A DNA stretch of 64,000 nt, from the IMG/VR virus record IMGVR_UViG_3300021400_000095. One strand, written 5' to 3'. Positions 11,647-57,273 of the stretch are shown in pieces (position 1 is the stretch's first letter; every line of letters starts with the position of its first letter). The notes under the pieces are model-generated. The model worked only from the letters and a program-made list of their open reading frames with translations. It was not told where the DNA came from and made no database searches. A program made the translations under genes and the position numbers. Source of the stretch: a virus (taxonomy: Duplodnaviria; Caudoviricetes).

Positions 11647-12339
11647 TTAATTATTCATCATTAATGCAGCACTTCTCATTTTTATAAAACTTTTTGCATT
11701 GATTTGCCTAACTCTTTCTTTTGAAATGCCAAGTTCTTTTCCAATTTCTTCAAGGGTTTTTGGTTTTGACCCATCAAGCCCATAATATTTTGTTAATATA
11801 TTTTTTTCCTTATCAGATAAAAAGTTCATTAAATAACCAACAACTTTTTTTTCTTCATCTGCTTTATCTTGTTTTGCTTCTTCATCAAATAGAAAGTCAT
11901 TATTAACAACAACAGTTGAATCATCTTTATAATCATCTTCTATTTCAACATCATTAATTGGAAGGTCATCTGCATCCATTACATTTTTCTTTTTAATTGC
12001 TTCAACTATAGCCTGTCTAATCCACCAAACAGAATAACTAATCAATTTAAATCCCTTATCACCATCAAATTTATCAATTGCTCTGATTAATCCACAATTA
12101 CCTTCAGAAATAAGTTCATTATAAGACAATCCCATTCCTTGATAATGTTTTGCAATGCTTGCAACAAATTTTAAATTGCATGACACCAATTTATTTCTTG
12201 CTTCAATATCATTTTCTTCCTTATATTTTTTCCAAAGTTCATATTCTTCATCCCTTTCAAGGGGTTGACTCTTTGTTATCTCATTAAAATATAATAAAGC
12301 ACTCTTATCATAGTCAATAACATTCTTATTTCTTTTCAT
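11647..12339 (-). CDS. RNA polymerase sigma-70 family factor (second copy)
   Basis: ELISEGNCGLIRAIDKFD...ISYSVWWIRQ; TLEEIGKELGISKERVRQI. Confidence 0.93.
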   Translation of the reverse strand: MKRNKNVIDYDKSALLYFNEITKSQPLERDEEYELWKKYKEENDIEARNKLVSCNLKFVASIAKHYQGMGLSYNELISEGNCGLIRAIDKFDGDKGFKLISYSVWWIRQAIVEAIKKKNVMDADDLPINDVEIEDDYKDDSTVVVNNDFLFDEEAKQDKADEEKKVVGYLMNFLSDKEKNILTKYYGLDGSKPKTLEEIGKELGISKERVRQINAKSFIKMRSAALMMNN

Positions 12340-26424: not shown

Positions 26425-26496
26425 GCCACATTAGTACAAAGGTTAGTGCAACTGTCCCTAAAACAGATAATATGGGTTCAATTCCTATATGTGGCA
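26425..26496 (+). tRNA. tRNA with CUA anticodon (amber suppressor-type)
   Basis: Cloverleaf GCCACAT/ATGTGGC; ACTGT-CCCTAAA-ACAGA; T loop TTCAATT; C33 instead of U33. Confidence 0.75.
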
Positions 26497-26549
26497 CAAA
26501 GTATTGAAGATATATTTGATTGATTTTAAATCATAGCAAAATTTGAAAA

Positions 26550-29533: not shown

Positions 29534-29575
29534 CCTGTAGGTTTGTCAGTGGCATGCCCTAAAACTGTCAAAGTA

Positions 29576-29653
29576 CTAATCAGTCATCTAGTGAACAAGG
29601 ATGCCTAGCAGTGATGCACATGGACACAGAGGTTTGAATCCTCTCTGATTAGC
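29576..29653 (+). ncRNA. tRNA-like RNA lacking a canonical anticodon loop
   Basis: CTAATCAG/CTGATTAG, CATC/GATG D stem, AGAGG-TTTGAAT-CCTCT; anticodon arm capped by GCA-GTGA-TGC. Confidence 0.6.
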
Positions 29654-29659
29654 AAATTA

Positions 29660-29729
29660 AGAAAACATACAGCAAAATTTATTTTGTAAAATTTGAATTT
29701 GGGTTTCAAACTGAAAAAAATGTTTTCTG
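29660..29729 (+). ncRNA. CAGCAA-scaffold RNA 1 (Pro UGG loop)
   Basis: AGAAAACA-TACAGCAA...TTTGAA-TTTGGGT-TTCAAA...TGTTTTCT-G. Confidence 0.75.
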
Positions 29730-29737
29730 TAAAATAT

Positions 29738-29808
29738 TGAAATGTCGTTCAAAGGTAGGACTCAGGATTTTGGTCCCTGCAATGTAGGTTCGATTCCTAC
29801 CATTTCAA
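29738..29808 (+). tRNA. tRNA-Gln(TTG)
   Basis: CAGGA-TTTTGGT-CCCTG. Confidence 0.9.
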
Positions 29809-29889
29809 CAAAGTTTTTTGAAAATTATACTGACTTTTTAAAATCTTGGCATGATTTTTGAATAACTAACATTAGTTCTTTGATTTAAT

Positions 29890-30414
29890 GCATCAGTAGC
29901 TCAGTTGGACAGAGCAACAGCCTTTAAGTGATTGATTTTCAATCAAATAGGAGTGTACTTAAGGAAACTTAAGATATAGAACTTTCCAAATTAGGTGAAG
30001 GCTAAGTACAGTGGGAACCTCACAGTGTAGGTTTTAAAAGGATGATAACCCACATGAGTATATGCTAATACCTAGCCAATGTCCCTGATATTCTAAAACA
30101 AAACATTCAAGTGAGAAGTGTGTGTCTTCTCAGAATATTAGACAGTGTGTAGAGACTAGATGGAAAGAACCTAAGTTGAAATATTAATGTGTACAGGTGG
30201 AAGCAGACCACATAAAAACTTAATGCTTTAAAAGACATTAATTACTTGCAAGATTTCAATATGGTTAAGGTATAGTCCAGACTACAAACATTAACTTGTT
30301 GGAGGAAGTAACTTGATGAAACCTTAAAAAATCTAATCCAATTAATAATGTGATAGTGAAAACTATTGTAGTAGGCTAAGCTGTGGGTCCTGGGTTCGAA
30401 TCCCAGCTGATGTA
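29890..30414 (+). tRNA. tRNA-Arg(TCT) interrupted by a group I intron
   Basis: Exons 29890-29924 and 30376-30414 join to ACAGC-CTTCTAA-GCTGT. Confidence 0.9.
29925..30375 (+). mobile_element. Group I self-splicing intron (IC3-like), no ORF
   Basis: Follows U34, ends in G; IGS TAGGAG 29948-53; P/Q/R/S-like AAATTAGGTGAA, GCTAATACCTAGC, GTAGAGACTAGATGG, AAGGTATAGTCC. Confidence 0.9.
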
Positions 30415-30509
30415 CAAAAAAAAATTAAAAAGTTCATTGACAAGTTTGGTAAATACAATAATCTATTTTGTAGATATGTGATATTGAAATAAAATAGTTG
30501 ACCTCAATG

Positions 30510-30632
30510 GCTATAATTGTTAAGTGGCTGAAAACAGTGGTCTTACCCTAAAGTACTGATATGGGGAAAACCACAATGTTAAATATAAAGTGCTGTATTT
30601 AACACACATTGGTTCAAATCCAATTTATAGCA
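30510..30632 (+). tRNA. tRNA-Leu(TAA)-like (alternatively Ser TGA) with a 21-nt insertion in the anticodon loop
   Basis: GCTATAA/TTATAGC-A; GTGGT-CTTA[insert]AAA-ACCAC; 11-bp variable arm. Confidence 0.6.
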
Positions 30633-30892
30633 TACTAGAGAGGTTATTTAATAAAACAAATACTGACAGTAGCATTGAATAAATGCTTAACATACTTGAT
30701 TTATGTGTTGAAGTTAACCTTCCTTGTAACATTTAACACTAAATAAGTTCACAGTAGCAAAGTAATCTGAGGTGGGTTCCGGCCAGCGGACTGGTATAAG
30801 CAAGAAGAGAGGAATACATAGTTTAATTAAAACAATTAGTGGTCATATATGTTAATGGTGACAGAGTTCAGAATAAGTTTTATTTTTTTATT

Positions 30893-30979: not shown

Positions 30980-30985
30980 CATAGA

Positions 30986-31065
30986 AGAAAACATACAGCA
31001 AATTATAATTTAATGAATTTAATGCTATTGAAATTTGGGATTTTCAAACAAAAAAATGTTTTCTG
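30986..31065 (+). ncRNA. CAGCAA-scaffold RNA 2 (Pro UGG loop)
   Basis: AGAAAACA-TACAGCAA...TTGAAA-TTTGGGAT-TTTCAA...TGTTTTCT-G. Confidence 0.75.
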
Positions 31066-31071
31066 TTATTT

Positions 31072-31759: not shown

Positions 31760-31765
31760 AAATTA

Positions 31766-31837
31766 AGGAAACATACAGCAAACAACATTTAAGCCTCAAA
31801 CTTTTAATTTGAAAATGCTAAATAATTTAGTTTCCTG
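31766..31837 (+). ncRNA. CAGCAA-scaffold RNA 3 (Lys UUU loop)
   Basis: AGGAAAC-ATACAGCAA...TCAAA-CTTTTAA-TTTGA...GTTTCCT-G (compensatory pair). Confidence 0.8.
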
Positions 31838-31919
31838 TAAATCTTAACCTTGGATGAAATCATTAGTATATTCCTATCATTGCTAACAGAAAGTAAAGAA
31901 GAGCCAAGGTTTTTTTAAT

Positions 31920-33000: not shown

Positions 33001-33541
33001 CTTTTTCTTGTTTTTTTGAATATTTATCTGTATATTTGCAGTGTATTTGTTCTTTGACAAGTTTGTAGTAACATAAATATTTGGTTTAGTAAATGTACAC
33101 CCAAATATACCATGCAAACAGGACTATTTGCTAAGGTCTCTTTAAAAACATTTACAGTTGAGTTAACAACTCATGTTAGCATAAGTAAACACATTTATAG
33201 TCCAATGTCTATAGGGTTTCTAACAGCTATTACAATAGTGTTGGTCTTTTCCTATTTTTTTTTTTGAAATTGATTAATAAAAAAAGATAGTGGTTTTTGG
33301 TGATTTTGGCCTATTGTCTTCTTACTTTGGATTAGTAAGTTTTTGAAAAACCCCAGGTTTTTGGCTTTTTTTACCCCTGTACTACTTCAAAAACAAAAAG
33401 AAATGAAAAATCTTTATCCCCATAAGTTTAATCCAACTAATTTGGAGGATAAAAAAACAATAGGTTTTCATTACTGGTTGTGGTAGATACCAAGTCTTTT
33501 CCTATTTTTTTTGAAATATAATAAACCACACAAAAGGTTTA

Positions 33542-33674
33542 AGAAAACATGCAGCAATTTTAAATAAAATTAATTTGTCTGTAATACAAAAGATGGTGGG
33601 TTCAAATCCCCCATAAAGAAGTTTGTGGTCCTTCTTTATTAGTTTAATGGTGAGAACTAAAATTTTGTTTTCTG
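33542..33674 (+). ncRNA. CAGCAA-scaffold RNA 4: circularly permuted tRNA-Tyr-like domain
   Basis: Stem-TGCAGCAA, TTTGT-CTGTAAT-ACAAA, T arm, closed acceptor ATAAAGAAG/CTTCTTTAT, D arm, stem. Confidence 0.8.
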
Positions 33675-33691
33675 TAAAATACCTTATATTT

Positions 33692-33766: not shown

Positions 33767-33912
33767 CAAGAGATACTTGGAGAAGGTACAAGGTAGTTAA
33801 TGCATCAATGGCTACAATCATGGCCTCCATGATAAGAGATAGTTTATGAATTTGAAAACACCAAGTAACAACATGTAGAGGTTGCAAACTCTATATGGCT
33901 CTAATCTTAACA

Positions 33913-34025
33913 AGAAAAGTAACAGCAAAATTTGAAGTTTTTAGATGAGTCATAAGATGATATGTATAGTGAAAACTATATGGGGTCTGAATCCCCAACT
34001 TACCCCAAACTAAAATTCTTTTCTG
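33913..34025 (+). ncRNA. CAGCAA-scaffold RNA 5 (variable-arm and T-arm-like hairpins)
   Basis: AGAAAAG-TAACAGCAA...TATAG-TGAAAA-CTATA, GGGG-TCTGAAT-CCCC...CTTTTCT-G (compensatory pair). Confidence 0.7.
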
Positions 34026-34041
34026 TTTTAAAGTATAAAAT

Positions 34042-34119: not shown

Positions 34120-34121
34120 AA

Positions 34122-34214
34122 AGAAAACTTACAGCAATTTATGTTGGATAAAATAAAAAATCTCTAAACTTTTTTATGAAATGGTTCAAATCCATTAAAA
34201 CTAATAGTTTTCTG
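34122..34214 (+). ncRNA. CAGCAA-scaffold RNA 6 (amber CUA loop + T arm)
   Basis: AGAAAACT-TACAGCAA...ATAAAAAA-tCTCTAAAc-TTTTTTAT, AATGG-TTCAAAT-CCATT...AGTTTTCT-G. Confidence 0.75.
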
Positions 34215-34228
34215 TTTATTTTTAAACT

Positions 34229-34425: not shown

Positions 34426-35364
34426 ATGTCAAAATATGATATTTTATTTAGTGAAAAAGAGAAAGAGAACATAATTAAAGATTATGTTGAAAACTTATTA
34501 TCAATTAAAGAAATTTGTTTTAAATATAGTATAAAAAACAAACAATGGTTATGCAAAAAACTTTTAAAAGGAAAAACAAGAAGTTATAATGAATCTTGTA
34601 AAATTGCACATAAAAAATATCCAGAAAAATTCTTACATACAGAAGAAACAAAAAAATTAATGAGACAAAAAAGGCTTGATTTTATGAAAAATCATCCTGA
34701 AGAAACTGCTTGGAGAAAAAGAAACAAACCTTCATATCCTGAGCAATGTTTTATTGATTTTTTAAATGAATATGGATATTCTGACAAATATTTAATTGAA
34801 AGAGAAAAAAGTATATTTCCATATTTCATTGATTTTGCTTTTAATGATTTAAAGATTGCAGTTGAAATTGATGGTTCACAACATTATCTAGAGGAAGATA
34901 GAATTAAAAGGGATAAGAAGAAAGATGAACTATTAATTTCTTTAGGATGGTCAATATTAAGAATTTCAGCAATTTCTTTAGTCAATAAAGAATTTAAAGA
35001 AATTGATAAAAAGTTATCTGAAATCATAGTTTCTGTTAAAACTGTAGTACAACCATTACAAGTTGGTTTAATAAAGAAAATAAAGGGGAAGAAAAGACTA
35101 TCAAAAAATGGTAAATGGTATGTAAATTACAGAGAAAAATCTGAAAAATATTCAGATAACCAAACAATTAAGCAATATGAAAATTCATTAAGACAGAGAA
35201 AAGTTAAAGACAGACCATCAAAAGAAGAATTATTTGAAATGATGTCAACACAGACATTTAAATCAATTGCTGAAAAATATGGTGTTTCAACAAATGCTAT
35301 TCAAAAATGGTGTAAGGCATATGGGATACCACATAGGAAAAGAGATTACAATAATTTGGGATAG
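34426..35364 (+). CDS. DUF559/Vsr-like PD-(D/E)xK endonuclease, free-standing homing-endonuclease-like
   Basis: HTEETKK (NUMOD3-like), YFIDFA, AVEIDGSQH, RDKKKD..L...GW.ILR, C-terminal HTH. Confidence 0.85.
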   Translation: MSKYDILFSEKEKENIIKDYVENLLSIKEICFKYSIKNKQWLCKKLLKGKTRSYNESCKIAHKKYPEKFLHTEETKKLMRQKRLDFMKNHPEETAWRKRNKPSYPEQCFIDFLNEYGYSDKYLIEREKSIFPYFIDFAFNDLKIAVEIDGSQHYLEEDRIKRDKKKDELLISLGWSILRISAISLVNKEFKEIDKKLSEIIVSVKTVVQPLQVGLIKKIKGKKRLSKNGKWYVNYREKSEKYSDNQTIKQYENSLRQRKVKDRPSKEELFEMMSTQTFKSIAEKYGVSTNAIQKWCKAYGIPHRKRDYNNLG

Positions 35365-35918: not shown

Positions 35919-36036
35919 TGGGAGGTAGCTCAGTTGGTTAGAGCAGAGTATTTATGTTTTTAGTAACAGAAACTTACAGCAATATTTACAATGCATTTGG
36001 AGCCTCAGGTCATAGGTTCAAGTCCTATCCTCCCAA
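35919..36036 (+). ncRNA. tRNA body with the CAGCAA scaffold inserted in the anticodon arm (scaffold RNA 7)
   Basis: TGGGAGG/CCTCCCA, canonical D and T arms; internal GTTTTT-agtaac-AGAAAC-TTACAGCAA, then GC-ATTTGGA-GC. Confidence 0.75.
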
Positions 36037-36041
36037 CAAAT

Positions 36042-36530: not shown

Positions 36531-36594
36531 TAAAAAATTATTTTTTTTTAGAAAAATTTGTTTATTTAAAATAATATTTATATATTTGTAGAGA

Positions 36595-36697
36595 AGAAAA
36601 CAGACAGCAAATTAAGTTTAAGATTGTAGGTTCAATTCCTTCTGTTTTTAAAGAAATTTAAAGGCAAAAATAGGTAATCCAAAAACAAAGTTTTCTG
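36595..36697 (+). ncRNA. CAGCAA-scaffold RNA 8 (T arm + closed acceptor, no anticodon)
   Basis: AGAAAAC-AGACAGCAA...AGG-TTCAATT-CCT, TGTTTTTAAA-GAAA-TTTAAAGGCA...GTTTTCT-G. Confidence 0.7.
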
Positions 36698-36709
36698 CTT
36701 GAAATACAA

Positions 36710-36865
36710 GCCGCCTTAGTATAGTGGTATTACAACTGACTTGCTACAGAGTGATTCACTGAGAAGAATTGCAAGGTATTAAAAGTGGTGAGCAGTACAG
36801 ATGATAGTTCAACTCTATCTACCTTGCCTAATCAGTAGATGTTGGTTCGATTCCGACAGGCGGCT
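36710..36865 (+). tRNA. tRNA-Thr(TGT)-like with an 85-nt anticodon insertion containing a nested tRNA-like module
   Basis: ACTGA-CTTG[36744-36828]TAA-TCAGT; insert has GCAAGGTA/TACCTTGC and GATAG-TTCAACT-CTATC. Confidence 0.7.
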
Positions 36866-36906: not shown

Positions 36907-37061
36907 GCCTGTATAGACTGAAATGGTGAAAGGGAGTAACAAACTGCTAAACAAATTTTAGTGAATGCATTAAGTTAAACTTTGAGTTAGTAAGTGTGAA
37001 AGGCTTAAGCAGCACCCTCTTTTGATAGAGGGGGATGTGGGTTCAATTCCCACTACAGGTA
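36907..37061 (+). ncRNA. tRNA-like gene with ~80-nt D-loop insertion and atypical anticodon loop
   Basis: GCCTGTA/TACAGGT; CCCTC-TTTTGATA-GAGGG; GTGGG-TTCAATT-CCCAC. Confidence 0.6.
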
Positions 37062-37068
37062 CAAAAAT

Positions 37069-50266: not shown

Positions 50267-51859
50267 ATGAAAGAAATGTTTAAAATATCTGAAAATGCAA
50301 ATCCAAACTACCTTGCATTGATTACTAAAATTGGTGAAACCCATCCAATTGAAGGTGCTGATAGGCTTCTTAGAACCACTGTTAATGGTTTTGACATTGT
50401 TGTTGGTAATAACATGAAAGAAGGGGATATTGTTGTATATGTTCCTGTGGAATCTGCACTTTCTGAAAAGTTCCTTTCTACAAATAACTTGTATGAACTT
50501 GATGAATGGCAAAAAAATGCCAATGCATCTGAAATTGGTGTTCTTTATACCAAACTTAATGAACTTAAGTCTGAAGGTAAAAAGGATGAAGCAGATGCTG
50601 TTTATAAGGAAATTAAATCTAAGGTTGGATATTTTACCAATAAGAATAGGGTTAGAATTATTAACCTTAGAGGTTGCCCTTCTAATGGCTTTGTTGCTGG
50701 TGTTGATTCTCTTGTAAAATATAATTCTGAACTTGCTAATTCTAACTGGGAAGAACTTGTTGGAACTTATTTTAATTATGTAGGTGATGATGAGTTTTGT
50801 AAGAAATACATCCCTACTATCAAAGATAATAATGTTCCTCAAAATAATAGGAAAGGTACTAAAAAAGCACAAAAGAAACTGCAAAGGTTTGATAGACTTG
50901 TCCCTGGTCAGTATGAATTCCATTATGACACAATCAGACTTGATGCAACCAATATGCAAACTTTTATTCAACCAACTGATACTGTAACTATTACAGTAAA
51001 GGTACATGGTGCTCTTGCTGAAATGGCAAATGTTCTTATTAATAAGAAACTTTCTGTTTGGGAGAAAATTAAGAAATTCATTGGTTTTCATGTTGAAACC
51101 ACTGAATATGGAAATGTCTATTCTTCACATAAGGTAATCAAAAATAGATATATTAATAAGGGTGAAATTAATAATTTCTATGGTGCTGACATTTGGGGTT
51201 GTGTAAATAGGGACTTTGGTAAGTACCTTTCTGAAGGCATGACTGTTTATGGTGAGGTTGCTGGTTATGTTGAAGGCTCTGATAAAATGATTCAAAAAAA
51301 TCATGACTATGGTTGTAAGCCTGGTTGTTGGAAATTCATGCCTTATAGAATTACTGAAACTGACAAATATGGTAATTCAAGAGAATGGAACATTTCTGAA
51401 ATTTTTAAGTGGACCATTGATTTAATGGTTGCTCACCCTGAACTTGAAGATAAAATTCTTCCTATTAAGATACTTTATCATGGAAGAATTTGTGACTTGT
51501 ACCCTGATATTGAAATTGATGAAAAATGGTATAGTAATTTCCTTGAAAGACTTCATAATGATAAGAACTTCTATATGGAGTTAAAGGAACCCATGTGCCA
51601 TCTTTATGAGGAAGAAGCAAATGCAGCAAAGAAAGCACTTGATAAGGCAATTGCTGATGGTGAATCAAAGAAAATCATTGCTAAACTTGAAAAAGAGTTT
51701 AACAAATGGGAAGATATGAGAGCACCAAGGGAAGGTGTTGTTATTAGAATTGATAATGATGCCAAGGCAGAAGCTTTTAAAGTTAAGACTAATGCCCACT
51801 ACGGGGTTGAATGTGCACAACATGATGCTGGTGAAGTTGATATTGAGGAAATTTCATAA
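50267..51859 (+). CDS. RNA ligase (Rnl2/DRB0094-type) with N-terminal OB domain
   Basis: PIEGADRL, motif I TVKVHG, VYGE, REGVV, FKVK. Confidence 0.85.
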   Translation: MKEMFKISENANPNYLALITKIGETHPIEGADRLLRTTVNGFDIVVGNNMKEGDIVVYVPVESALSEKFLSTNNLYELDEWQKNANASEIGVLYTKLNELKSEGKKDEADAVYKEIKSKVGYFTNKNRVRIINLRGCPSNGFVAGVDSLVKYNSELANSNWEELVGTYFNYVGDDEFCKKYIPTIKDNNVPQNNRKGTKKAQKKLQRFDRLVPGQYEFHYDTIRLDATNMQTFIQPTDTVTITVKVHGALAEMANVLINKKLSVWEKIKKFIGFHVETTEYGNVYSSHKVIKNRYINKGEINNFYGADIWGCVNRDFGKYLSEGMTVYGEVAGYVEGSDKMIQKNHDYGCKPGCWKFMPYRITETDKYGNSREWNISEIFKWTIDLMVAHPELEDKILPIKILYHGRICDLYPDIEIDEKWYSNFLERLHNDKNFYMELKEPMCHLYEEEANAAKKALDKAIADGESKKIIAKLEKEFNKWEDMRAPREGVVIRIDNDAKAEAFKVKTNAHYGVECAQHDAGEVDIEEIS

Positions 51860-52986: not shown

Positions 52987-53271
52987 ATGAGTGATTTGCT
53001 AAATAAGAAATTTTTTAAGCACAAGAAGTTGAATACATTTTATCTCAAAAGGTTCAAGACTGAATCAAAGAGTAATTTTCAGGTTTGGAAGAAAAATGGT
53101 AAATATTATGTTGCAATAGGTGTAATATCTGTTGGTGACAGTCTTTATGCTGAAGAAACCATTGATTATGGGACTAACATTATTGAAGCAAGGAAGTATT
53201 GTGATGAACTTAGGCAAAATTATATCTTAAATGAAGTAAAAAGATATAAGAATTTAAAGAAAGTATATTAA
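52987..53271 (+). CDS. Hypothetical protein
   Basis: 94 aa ORF. Confidence 0.65.
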   Translation: MSDLLNKKFFKHKKLNTFYLKRFKTESKSNFQVWKKNGKYYVAIGVISVGDSLYAEETIDYGTNIIEARKYCDELRQNYILNEVKRYKNLKKVY

Positions 53272-54533
53272 TGATAGAAAAGTTATTTAAAATAAACATA
53301 TGTGAAAAACATCCTGAATATTGTTCCATTGAATATTTATGGGACAATATTTGGTCTATACCTGAGTTTGCAATTTTAAAGACATGTGAACAAAATCCAA
53401 AATGGCATGGTGAAGGAAATGTTATGAACCACACTGCACTTGTCATAAAGCATGCACTTCAAATTGTGAACAATGATATGACCTATGATGGTATTCATAT
53501 TAATGGATATTTGGATGCTGAAAGCAATCATAAAAGAAATGAATTTGAAACTGTTTGGCTTGACAAGAAGCATTTCAATGATACATTAATTTTGCTTACA
53601 GCAGCATTGTTTCATGATATTGGCAAAGGTGTAACAACCAGGCTTGGAAAAGATGGAAATTATCATTCATATAATCATGAATTTGAGGGTGAAAAACTTA
53701 CCAGATTACTTTTATGGGATGAAAACATTCATTTTAGGGAAGCAGTTTGTTCATTGGTTAAATACCATATGATGCCATTAAGTCTTTTTAATAGTAAAGA
53801 TTATTTGGAAAAAATTGTACAAATTTCACATAATGTTCCATCTTGGGAATTATTATTGAAATTAAAGTCATGTGATTTGGAAGGTTCCTTACAGGAGGAT
53901 AATCTTTTAAAGGAAAGGGACACCTTATATTTATCTGAATTGGTAGATATCACAACAAATATTAATTTCAAAGGTTTTCCATCAAAGAGACATTATGGTA
54001 TCAAGTATTATGAAAGAAACACCAAAAAACCATTGGATATTTATATTTTGATTGGGCTTTCAGGTGCTGGTAAAAATACTTTTATCAACAATATATTTGA
54101 AGATGATGTTGTTGCCATTAATGGCAAAGTTATAAAGAAACTTGACAAAGATAATACTACCATTATTTCAAGGGATGATATTAGGATTAAACTTGGATAT
54201 TGTTCTGAGAATGAAAAAATTGTTGGCACTACTGAACAGGAAAATAAGGTATCAGAAGTTTTCAATGAAGAAGTTCTATCTGCTGCAAAAGAAGGAAAAA
54301 CAATTATCATTAATAATATTAATTTAAAGAAGGAATATAGGTCACAGATAATAAACATGTTTTCAAACTATTGTTTGACAATAAATTATGTTTATATACA
54401 GGCAGACAAACTACAAAAGAATTTTGATAGAAGAGAAGGTCAAATGAACTCAGATTCAATTATTAGACAAATAAAGAATTTTGATTGGCCAGATTTCTAT
54501 GAATATGATAAATTTTACATTCTCACAAATTAA
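53271..54533 (+). CDS. HD-domain phosphohydrolase fused to P-loop (polynucleotide kinase-like) domain
   Basis: Q..WHGEGNV..HT, FHDIGK; GLSGAGKNT, ISRDDIR. Confidence 0.88.
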   Translation: MIEKLFKINICEKHPEYCSIEYLWDNIWSIPEFAILKTCEQNPKWHGEGNVMNHTALVIKHALQIVNNDMTYDGIHINGYLDAESNHKRNEFETVWLDKKHFNDTLILLTAALFHDIGKGVTTRLGKDGNYHSYNHEFEGEKLTRLLLWDENIHFREAVCSLVKYHMMPLSLFNSKDYLEKIVQISHNVPSWELLLKLKSCDLEGSLQEDNLLKERDTLYLSELVDITTNINFKGFPSKRHYGIKYYERNTKKPLDIYILIGLSGAGKNTFINNIFEDDVVAINGKVIKKLDKDNTTIISRDDIRIKLGYCSENEKIVGTTEQENKVSEVFNEEVLSAAKEGKTIIINNINLKKEYRSQIINMFSNYCLTINYVYIQADKLQKNFDRREGQMNSDSIIRQIKNFDWPDFYEYDKFYILTN

Positions 54534-55582: not shown

Positions 55583-56014
55583 ATGGATAAAAATTGGCAA
55601 TATTATGGTGTTTTCTTTTCTGATAAAGTAAAGGAACTTTTATATAGGAAAGCAAGTCAATATCTTGACCTTCCTTTTATGTTTGAAAACTATTATTTTG
55701 ATATTGATACATGGAAGAAATATTGTGACCATGTAACAATTGTATATAATGATGGAAACCCTGAAAAACAAAAAATTGCAGAAGGACTTGACCTATTTGT
55801 AGGTAATGAGGCTTCTATGATGGTAACACATTTGGGTGTATCTGATAGAGCAGTTGCTTTTAAAGTTGATTATAAAACAACAAATAAGATTTCACATGTA
55901 ACTGTTGCAGTTGCTCCTGGTGCAAAACCTGTTGAAAGCAATTATATTACTGATTGGGAAGAAATTGATGTTTTTTATATTAGTGGCAAAATTAATAAAG
56001 TTTTAAAGAAATGA
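55583..56014 (+). CDS. 2H phosphoesterase (tRNA-ligase CPDase-like)
   Basis: Two HxT motifs (HVTI, HVTV), KPVESN. Confidence 0.85.
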   Translation: MDKNWQYYGVFFSDKVKELLYRKASQYLDLPFMFENYYFDIDTWKKYCDHVTIVYNDGNPEKQKIAEGLDLFVGNEASMMVTHLGVSDRAVAFKVDYKTTNKISHVTVAVAPGAKPVESNYITDWEEIDVFYISGKINKVLKK

Positions 56015-57273
56015 CAATAAATATCTATAAAGAAATCCTTAAAGAACTAAAGAACATAATTACAGGTACTGAATGGGAAAATCATATTTTTTCTGTTGGT
56101 GGTTGTAATAGGGATTATATTATGGGAAATGAAATTAAAGACATTGATTTTGTTTGTGATTTGCCAAATGGTGGTATTAATTTTGCAAAATGGCTCAAAG
56201 AAAATGAATATGTCAATAATAGCATTGTTGTTTATGAAAATTTTGGAACTGCAATGTTTCATTTAAATAAATTTCCTGATATTGAACTTGAAGTTGTTCA
56301 TACAAGAAAAGAATGTTATCATGATGCAAAGACAAGAAATCCTGAAACTTCTTTTGGCACACTTCTTGAAGATTGGGAAAGAAGGGACTTTACAATTAAT
56401 GCAATATATTACAACATTAGTAAAGGTGAATTTTTAGATTTTAAAGATAGAGGTAAAACTGACATTGAAAAGAAAATAATTAGAACCTGTAGTTTAAACC
56501 CTGATATAGTTTTTACTGAAGACCCTTTAAGAATTCTAAGAATGGTTAGATTTGCTACAAAACTGGGGTTTGAAATTGATAATAATACTTTTAGTAGTGC
56601 TAAAAAGAATACAAACAGGTTATCAATTATTAGTAAAGAAAGGATTCAGGATGAACTTAATAAAATGCTTACTTCTGGTAATGCAGATTATGCAATGAAA
56701 CTTATATATGATTTAGGTGCTGATGAATATATTTTTAATTCAAAAATTGATTGCCCTGAGCAAATAATTAAATCTCTGAAAAACTATAAGTTACTGCCAA
56801 ACTGTGATGTAAAAAATCTTGAAGCCAATTTGACTATTATATATAGTTTCTATCCTGATGTAGAAGATAAAATGAAATATCTCAAATATTCAAATGAAAT
56901 AATTTATTTGGTTATGTTTTATTTTGATTTATTTGATGATATTAATTTATCAAGAATGACACCATCAGGAATTAGAAAAATACAATATAACAGCAAAACA
57001 TTTAATAATTTAATAAATGCCTGTAATATTGCTACTGCTGTCCTTAACACACCAAATGTTAATAAAGTATTGGAAAGCACTAATAAAATGATGAAAGCTG
57101 GCATAGCAATGTTTAATTATAAACTTCCTGTTGATGGAAATGATGTTATGAGAGTGCTTCATATTAAACCATCACCAGTTGTAAAAACAAAATTGGATTT
57201 CCTGTTAAATCAGGCTTTTATTAATCCATTCCTTAGTAAATCTGATTGCGAATTATTGTTAGAACTAAATTAA
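56011..57273 (+). CDS. cca: tRNA nucleotidyltransferase (CCA-adding enzyme, class II)
   Basis: VGGCNRD, DIDF, RRDFTINA, EDPLRILR, SKERI. Confidence 0.9.
   Translation: MTINIYKEILKELKNIITGTEWENHIFSVGGCNRDYIMGNEIKDIDFVCDLPNGGINFAKWLKENEYVNNSIVVYENFGTAMFHLNKFPDIELEVVHTRKECYHDAKTRNPETSFGTLLEDWERRDFTINAIYYNISKGEFLDFKDRGKTDIEKKIIRTCSLNPDIVFTEDPLRILRMVRFATKLGFEIDNNTFSSAKKNTNRLSIISKERIQDELNKMLTSGNADYAMKLIYDLGADEYIFNSKIDCPEQIIKSLKNYKLLPNCDVKNLEANLTIIYSFYPDVEDKMKYLKYSNEIIYLVMFYFDLFDDINLSRMTPSGIRKIQYNSKTFNNLINACNIATAVLNTPNVNKVLESTNKMMKAGIAMFNYKLPVDGNDVMRVLHIKPSPVVKTKLDFLLNQAFINPFLSKSDCELLLELN

Follow-up and report, generated by a model that had tools for sequence, protein, structure and literature searches.

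A probable Lak-type intron with a pseudoknot leader in the anticodon of a phage tRNA-Thr gene

A tRNA-Thr(UGU) gene of a rumen phage is interrupted within its anticodon by an 85-nt insert that contains a tRNA-like top half of its own. This insert is probably a mobile tRNA intron of the Lak type, of a subtype with a pseudoknot leader, which does not splice itself and would be removed from the transcript by proteins, leaving a functional tRNA-Thr(UGU). Sequence comparison defines its boundaries, the architecture of its family, its mobility and the cognate 7-nt loop left by its removal; the enzymes that we name below are candidates. Group I and group II self-splicing are, to our knowledge, the only ways in which bacteria and their phages are known to remove tRNA introns. 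Inserts of this class, which measure 65-170 nt, fit neither.

The split gene and its junction

The window analysed here is a stretch of 64,000 nt (64 kb) from a 352,732-bp contig of the rumen assembly ERZ28612966; the sample is SAMN02144230, which we read from the accession as sheep rumen. With about 30 tRNAs and a tmRNA, it belongs to a jumbo phage. The host would be a member of the Bacteroidales, judging from relatives: Lak infects Prevotella, and one member of the insert family lies in a Bacteroidales bin.

The Rfam tRNA model spans positions 36710-36865 with a score of 51.3 bits. ARAGORN at its defaults overlooks the split gene, and its own intron call is Arg. After excision of the insert (Table 1), which restores a cognate 7-nt anticodon loop, ARAGORN reads tRNA-Thr(tgt) with a body of 71 nt plus the discriminator. 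The spliced gene is 90% identical to the intron-less tRNA-Thr of the related record L099 and 86% identical to that of L186, and CCA is not encoded at the end of the 3′ exon. The coordinates that the original prediction gave for gene and insert all proved correct when re-checked on the sequence. It had also held that the island has no other Thr tRNA; we found no intact one within the 64-kb window of the contig, and Thr is the sole amino acid absent from the window's intact tRNA set.

Table 1. Features of the split tRNA-Thr gene, its insert and its surroundings in the window
Feature	Position	Strand	Description
5′ exon, tRNA-Thr(UGU)	36710..36743	+	acceptor 5′ strand, D arm, anticodon stem 5′ strand, loop positions 32-35
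Insert, 85 nt	36744..36828	+	within anticodon at 35/36; removal gives tRNA-Thr(UGU)
Leader, 27 nt	36744..36770	+	starts N-TACAG; H-type pseudoknot
Pseudoknot P1	36747-36749/36759-36761	+	covariation
Pseudoknot P2	36753-36757/36766-36770	+	covariation
Inner tRNA top half	36771..36827	+	8-bp acceptor-like stem, 24-nt D-like linker, 5-bp T arm, 7-nt T loop
Inner stem GCAAGGTA/TACCTTGC	36771-36778/36820-36827	+	8 bp
Inner T arm GATAG-TTCAACT-CTATC	36803-36819	+	present in sequence
Unpaired terminal C	36828..36828	+	discriminator-like; 3′ junction directly after, 14 nt past inner T loop
3′ exon	36829..36865	+	positions 36-38, anticodon stem 3′ strand, variable loop, T arm, acceptor 3′ strand, U73
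Rnl5/DRB0094-like ATP-dependent RNA ligase	50267..51859	+	candidate sealer; PF21189, weak TIGR02306, phrog_968 E 1.6e-32
HD-domain and polynucleotide-kinase-like protein	53271..54533	+	candidate end-healing enzyme; Pfam HD, AAA_33, phrog_505
CCA-adding nucleotidyltransferase-like gene	56011..57273	+	encoded in the window
ACAGCAA elements	29656-29732, 30985-31066, 31765-31840, 33540-33675, 33910-34026, 34120-34215, 36594-36698		AGAAAAC/GTTTTCT-type closing stem

Sliding the 85-nt excision along the gene yields Arg(CCU), Thr(UGU) and Ala(UGC), among others. Comparison with other tRNAs supports Thr(UGU), at 35/36, as the junction. When the anticodon is masked, the five nearest neighbours among 1,193 intron-less tRNAs are all Thr and the best match is UGU. 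In the syntenic orthologue L093 the insert starts with A where that of the window has C; a 36/37 junction would make the window gene Ala and the L093 gene Ser, which favours Thr at 35/36. Moreover, near-identical pairs of genes with and without the insert have one common offset, which fixes the junction: the insert begins one base ahead of TAC and finishes in C after the stem. These pairs are Tyr in L191 and L193 (identical), Pro in L228 and L294, and Arg in L294 and L193 (one mismatch each).

The same comparisons make it very improbable that the insert is a degenerate group I intron at 33/34, leaving tRNA-Arg(CCU) (junction 36742-36826), or that a 36/37 junction leaves Ala(UGC). The −2 junction would follow U33 and the intron would end in G; ARAGORN chooses it, and the same slide yields CCU in L093, L122 and L125 too. 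However, the tRNA body is that of a Thr tRNA, by its masked match and by U73 and the lack of A20 and of G3-U70; the 85 nt hold no group I core; and the −2 intron of L122 and L125 ends in C or T. The observation that the insert does not end in G, made in the original prediction, is right for the Thr junction and wrong for the −2 slide. Its statement that the insert is neither a group I nor a group II intron stands: at 85 nt it has no Rfam match, and at the supported junction the insert comes after G and has a terminal C.

Elsewhere in the window, a tRNA-Arg(UCU) gene (29890-30415) carries after U34 an insert of 451 nt (29925-30375) that ends in G and has group I-like motifs. This gene is overlooked by Rfam and mis-called Ser by ARAGORN.

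Anatomy of the insert

The 3′ part of the insert has the layout of a tRNA top half (Table 1). The inner stem and T arm that had been read from the sequence are both there, and a T arm with an 8-bp closing stem did not arise once when the insert was dinucleotide-shuffled 100,000 times. Exactly one unpaired 3′ base follows the closing stem in 31 of 32 related inserts, and the stem has at least 8 bp in those 31; the closing stem was not among the search criteria, but the T loop and the C were required, so these two features are partly selected. Related inserts vary widely between the acceptor-like 5′ strand and the T arm, where some have a few bases and others complete D, anticodon and variable arms, which indicates that only the top half is constrained. 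In the L093 orthologue the inner stem remains paired through an A-U to G-U change.

Energy folding backs only the outer acceptor stem, the outer T arm and the inner 8-bp stem. It gives the inner T arm a pair probability of 0.06 and favours neither the pseudoknot helices nor the anticodon stem. Support for these three elements is therefore comparative.

The first 27 nt of the insert form a conserved pseudoknot that the earlier description had left out. Thirteen distinct leaders align without gaps, and across them 95% of the cells of the two-helix pseudoknot are paired, with two-sided changes in five of the eight pairs. No shuffle among 500 reaches the pseudoknot score and slid controls lie at 8-46%, although kinship among the sequences can inflate such counts. 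The single-stranded leader bases A3, T9 and A21 are invariant.

Relatives, mobility and use of the tRNA

About 30 phage tRNA genes, which belong to several isotypes, have inserts of this layout, at sites 34/35, 35/36 or 36/37. Leader-type inserts are found in Thr, Asn, Phe, Tyr, Glu, Pro, Arg and Met genes. They follow a boundary rule: the insert starts with N-TAC or N-TAA and ends in C 14 nt past the T loop. The anticodon derived by this rule agrees with the masked body in 22 of the 27 leader-type inserts. Thr(UGU) itself is restored at 34/35 in L193, at 35/36 in the window, L093, L122 and L125, and at 36/37 in Lak-A1 and L091. A model built from ten other inserts, none of them from a Thr gene (model R2), has its top match in the window at 36744-36828, end to end (48.7 bits, E 2.7e-7). 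There is also a second class of inserts, which are leaderless, lie at 34/35 to 36/37 and are tRNA-shaped from the first paired base to a terminal CCA (L199, L204, L207, L218, L232, L262, L267, L277, L289 and L305).

The identities of exons and inserts are decoupled, from which it follows that the insert is mobile between tRNA bodies. Window and L093 share 67% identity in the exons and 84% in the insert; for window and L122 the values are 89% and 58%; and for L093 and L193, whose insertion sites differ, they are 88% and 58%. The L093 gene lies in a syntenic order of His, ACAGCAA element, Thr, Cys, Ser, SprT-like and F420-ligase-like genes. Syntenic L191 is intron-less whereas L193 and L093 bear inserts. 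The comparison of orthologues proposed in the original prediction thus has both of its arms, with related tRNAs that carry the insert (L093, L193) and related tRNAs that lack it (L099, L186, L191).

The class looks phage-restricted, as far as the scan pattern reaches. Among 185,579 prokaryote genomes the scan found a single match, in a dense tRNA island of a Bacteroidales bin, and that insert is the same as in the phage contigs L211 and L314. A metagenome scan gave mostly chance matches and two real ones; a first viral scan gave chance matches only. Neither the exact exon pattern nor the SprT-like protein had a match in IMG/VR, and BLAST against GenBank phages returned exon fragments only.

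Is the tRNA used? In the window and in L093, L122, L125 and L193 every exon stem pairs, and the changes between them include two-sided ones. Within the fetched islands, an intact copy with the same anticodon is missing for 18 of the 23 split genes; the other five have an intact duplicate. ACA is the commonest Thr codon in the sampled ORFs of the window (229 of 430). Taken from the genes themselves, the paired exons, the mostly single copies and the use of ACA speak against both a decaying gene and a surplus decoy copy. That the split gene fits the missing isotype is equally expected if the insert merely kills a single-copy gene. In the same sampled ORFs, ACG is absent from 7,045 codons (ACA 229, ACT 164, ACC 37), which suggests strong avoidance of CG.

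The arms of relatives, whose decay would mark a pseudogene, are not decayed: the syntenic orthologue retains both arms and the insert, which makes a pseudogene unlikely. It is quite improbable that the insert is a selfish element that inactivates the tRNA, with the host supplying Thr tRNA, or the scar of an integrated element. Phages can often do without their tRNAs, tRNA genes are frequent integration targets, and a 5-nt repeat, CTTGC, lies close to both ends of the insert. Against this, the repeat is missing in L122 and L125, the exact pairs with and without the insert show no target duplication, the insert covaries and the exons stay paired through two-sided changes.

The gene could instead give an unspliced, non-decoding RNA, either a double tRNA mimic that serves as decoy or carrier or a source from which the inner mini-tRNA is released, with no mature Thr tRNA made. 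The inner module is conserved above the exons between window and L093 (84% against 67%), other tRNA-like RNAs in the island may not decode, and intact duplicates exist for some split genes. But a decoy would have no need to keep, at three insertion sites and across many isotypes, a cognate anticodon that removal of the insert restores exactly, and the majority of split genes are the only copy seen. We regard this reading as fairly unlikely. The original prediction had left the choice between a protein-processed intron and a decoy; restorable anticodons and mostly single copies disfavour the decoy, and the protein-processed intron is the likeliest reading.

The surrounding island holds further tRNA-like features. 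The ACAGCAA elements (Table 1) are kept in synteny in L093, and several of them contain circularly permuted tRNA parts; that at 33540 has a Tyr anticodon arm, T arm, acceptor and D arm. Only N-ACAG and a nearby distal CTG are common to these elements and the intron leader. The second match of model R2 (29667-29809) joins an ACAGCAA element to the downstream tRNA-Gln. A tRNA-like gene at 35919-36037 holds the ACAGCAA scaffold inside, in swapped order, and has a Pro-like TGG loop; similar genes lie in L093 near 5955 and 5712, on the minus strand. A Leu(UAA)-like class II tRNA (30510-30633) has a 21-nt anticodon-loop hairpin unlike the Thr insert. The tRNA-like sequence at 36908-37063 pairs in its acceptor and T arm; its D region is enlarged by about 75 nt, and its anticodon loop has 8 nt. 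Directly after tRNA-Glu there is an unannotated tRNA-like unit (29575-29654) with a long acceptor-like stem and a T arm. A tRNA with a CUA (amber) anticodon is found at 26425-26497, yet long ORFs read in code 11. A lone DUF559/REase-like endonuclease gene (34426-35364) sits within the island; it resembles a mobile homing endonuclease, and it is present in L192 and not called in its close relative L191.

A proposed splicing route and known systems

We propose that the inner 8+5-bp top half would be read as a pre-tRNA. An RNase Z-type enzyme, probably the host's, would cut after the unpaired C36828 and leave a 5′-phosphate on exon 2. Mammalian tRNase Z cuts after the discriminator on substrates without D and anticodon arms and on those of more than 11 bp, and it is inhibited by long 5′ leaders (PMC9141469). 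The 3′ junction would thus coincide with the expected RNase Z site, on data for a mammalian enzyme and not the host's. No metallo-beta-lactamase/RNase Z-fold gene was found in five insert-bearing phage records, which makes the host enzyme the candidate; the Bacteroidales MAG has an RNase Z-like gene that scores below the curated cut-off. RNase P may cut first, at the border of leader and stem, and could so ease the inhibition of RNase Z by the leader. Its site would be 36770/36771, 27 nt inside the insert and not at 36743/36744, so RNase P cannot make the 5′ junction. The original idea of tRNA-processing nucleases that see the inner module therefore suits the 3′ end, at an RNase Z-type site, but RNase P and RNase Z are not the whole mechanism.

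For the 5′ junction, the N-TACAG pseudoknot may mark the site for an endonuclease, or it may self-cleave there. A cyclic phosphate, if formed, could be healed by the HD/kinase protein. The tRNA halves would be held together by the acceptor and anticodon stems and sealed by the Rnl5-like ligase of the phage. The gene for the phage RNA ligase invoked in the original prediction is indeed present (Table 1), and its motif I is of the KxHG type. Homologues of the ligase occur in Lak-A1 and in two of three other insert-bearing genomes (three of four in all), and we infer a link between ligase and intron. RNA ligases are common in jumbo phages irrespective of introns. Rnl5 ligases join a 3′-OH to a 5′-phosphate and were characterised on duplex nicks, not loops (PMC5397189). 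For the HD/kinase protein we found no homologue in Lak-A1, and comparison of both proteins with the PDB gave nothing informative.

The leader pseudoknot, with or without the T-arm module, might instead be a small self-cleaving or self-splicing ribozyme, with proteins only healing and sealing the ends of the same intron. Three invariant bases lie in a compact covarying pseudoknot that abuts the 5′ junction, an HD phosphoesterase/kinase gene is nearby, and the five insert-bearing phage records have neither an RNase Z-fold gene nor RtcB. We nevertheless consider a ribozyme unlikely. Even with E allowed to reach 10, Rfam gives no ribozyme match for the insert, and the covariance models of HDV/theta, twister, pistol, hatchet and hammerhead do not match it; mapped by eye, the leader did not fit these folds. 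P2 is missing from the short-leader members, Lak included, and the 3′ end is set by a tRNA-like ruler, which suggests a protein.

For the protein-removed intron that we prefer, the boundary rule points to the precise junction and to a single candidate site for a nuclease, and a pseudoknot and a candidate ligase come with it, so that the question is directly testable. It also corrects annotation, because such genes are missed or mis-assigned (as Arg by ARAGORN here, and as Tyr for an Asn gene in Lak). If the gene is spliced, phage tRNA output would depend on phage RNA-repair enzymes, a possible timing switch.

Short introns of this kind have been described before. Devoto 2019 reported 'enigmatic' tRNA introns in Lak megaphages, with tRNA alleles that have or lack the intron, and among them a tRNA-Thr(TGT) whose intron may contain a tRNA (PMC6784885, Fig. 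4, Table S6); that paper gives neither an architecture nor a mechanism, and we saw no splicing experiment there. That tRNA within a tRNA-Thr intron has the same layout as ours, and the insert is not the new kind of intron suggested in the original prediction. In literature searches we found no later explanation of Lak-type introns since 2019, and tRNA introns do not come up in the main texts of Al-Shayeb 2020 and Borges 2021.

We derived the architecture of the Lak-type class from the Table S6 sequences and their relatives (Lak-A1 is our L087). In Lak as in the window, a jumbo-phage tRNA bears a short insert (about 80-140 nt in Lak) in its anticodon loop. Like the window insert, the Lak-A1 introns begin with N-TA(C/A), have a short leader stem, the 8-bp stem and the T arm, keep to the 14-nt ruler and end in an unpaired C. 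They differ in site (35/36 in the window's Thr gene, 36/37 in that of Lak) and in leader, which is a two-helix pseudoknot in the window and a short hairpin with an A-rich tail in Lak. The window insert is 49% identical to the Lak Thr intron. A Lak-only model (R1; AT-rich, 10 pairs) does not detect it, and R2 scores the Lak introns at 25-30 bits, inside the ordinary tRNA background. We therefore file the insert, by its architecture, as a pseudoknot-leader variant of the Lak kind. The published Lak 'tRNA-Tyr(GTA)' intron genes (L087, Lak-A1, 12005-12168; L088, 3284-3498) are better read as tRNA-Asn(GUU) split at 35/36: they have G73 and a short variable loop, and the L088 gene is nearest an intact Asn.

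Group I introns of bacterial and phage tRNAs occupy the same place in the anticodon loop. However, they have a catalytic core, P3-P7, a U before the 5′ site and a terminal G, whereas the window insert is coreless, follows G35 and ends in C. Group II introns have six domains including domain V, over several hundred nt; the insert has 85 nt and no Rfam match.

The introns of archaeal and eukaryotic tRNAs are likewise short, lie in the anticodon loop and, like ours presumably, are spliced by proteins (EndA/TSEN at a BHB; RtcB or Trl1). They are mostly at 37/38, whereas the phage class is at 34/35 to 36/37. Archaeal and eukaryotic systems may ligate by RtcB, which was not found in the five phage records, and the phage class looks restricted to phages within the reach of the scan pattern. 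In mascRNA/menRNA and in the tRNA-like domain of tmRNA, a mimic of the tRNA top half recruits RNase P- or RNase Z-type cuts; these set the ends of the RNA, and the flanking exons are not re-ligated. The ends of the phage insert, unlike those of archaeal and eukaryotic introns, would be defined by an internal tRNA mimic and a pseudoknot. It is quite possible, if a little short of probable, that this is a fourth, phage-only route of tRNA splicing, in which the top-half mimic would borrow the 3′-trimming nuclease of the host, the new pseudoknot, as nuclease signal or ribozyme, would serve the other junction and the phage ligase would reseal the anticodon.
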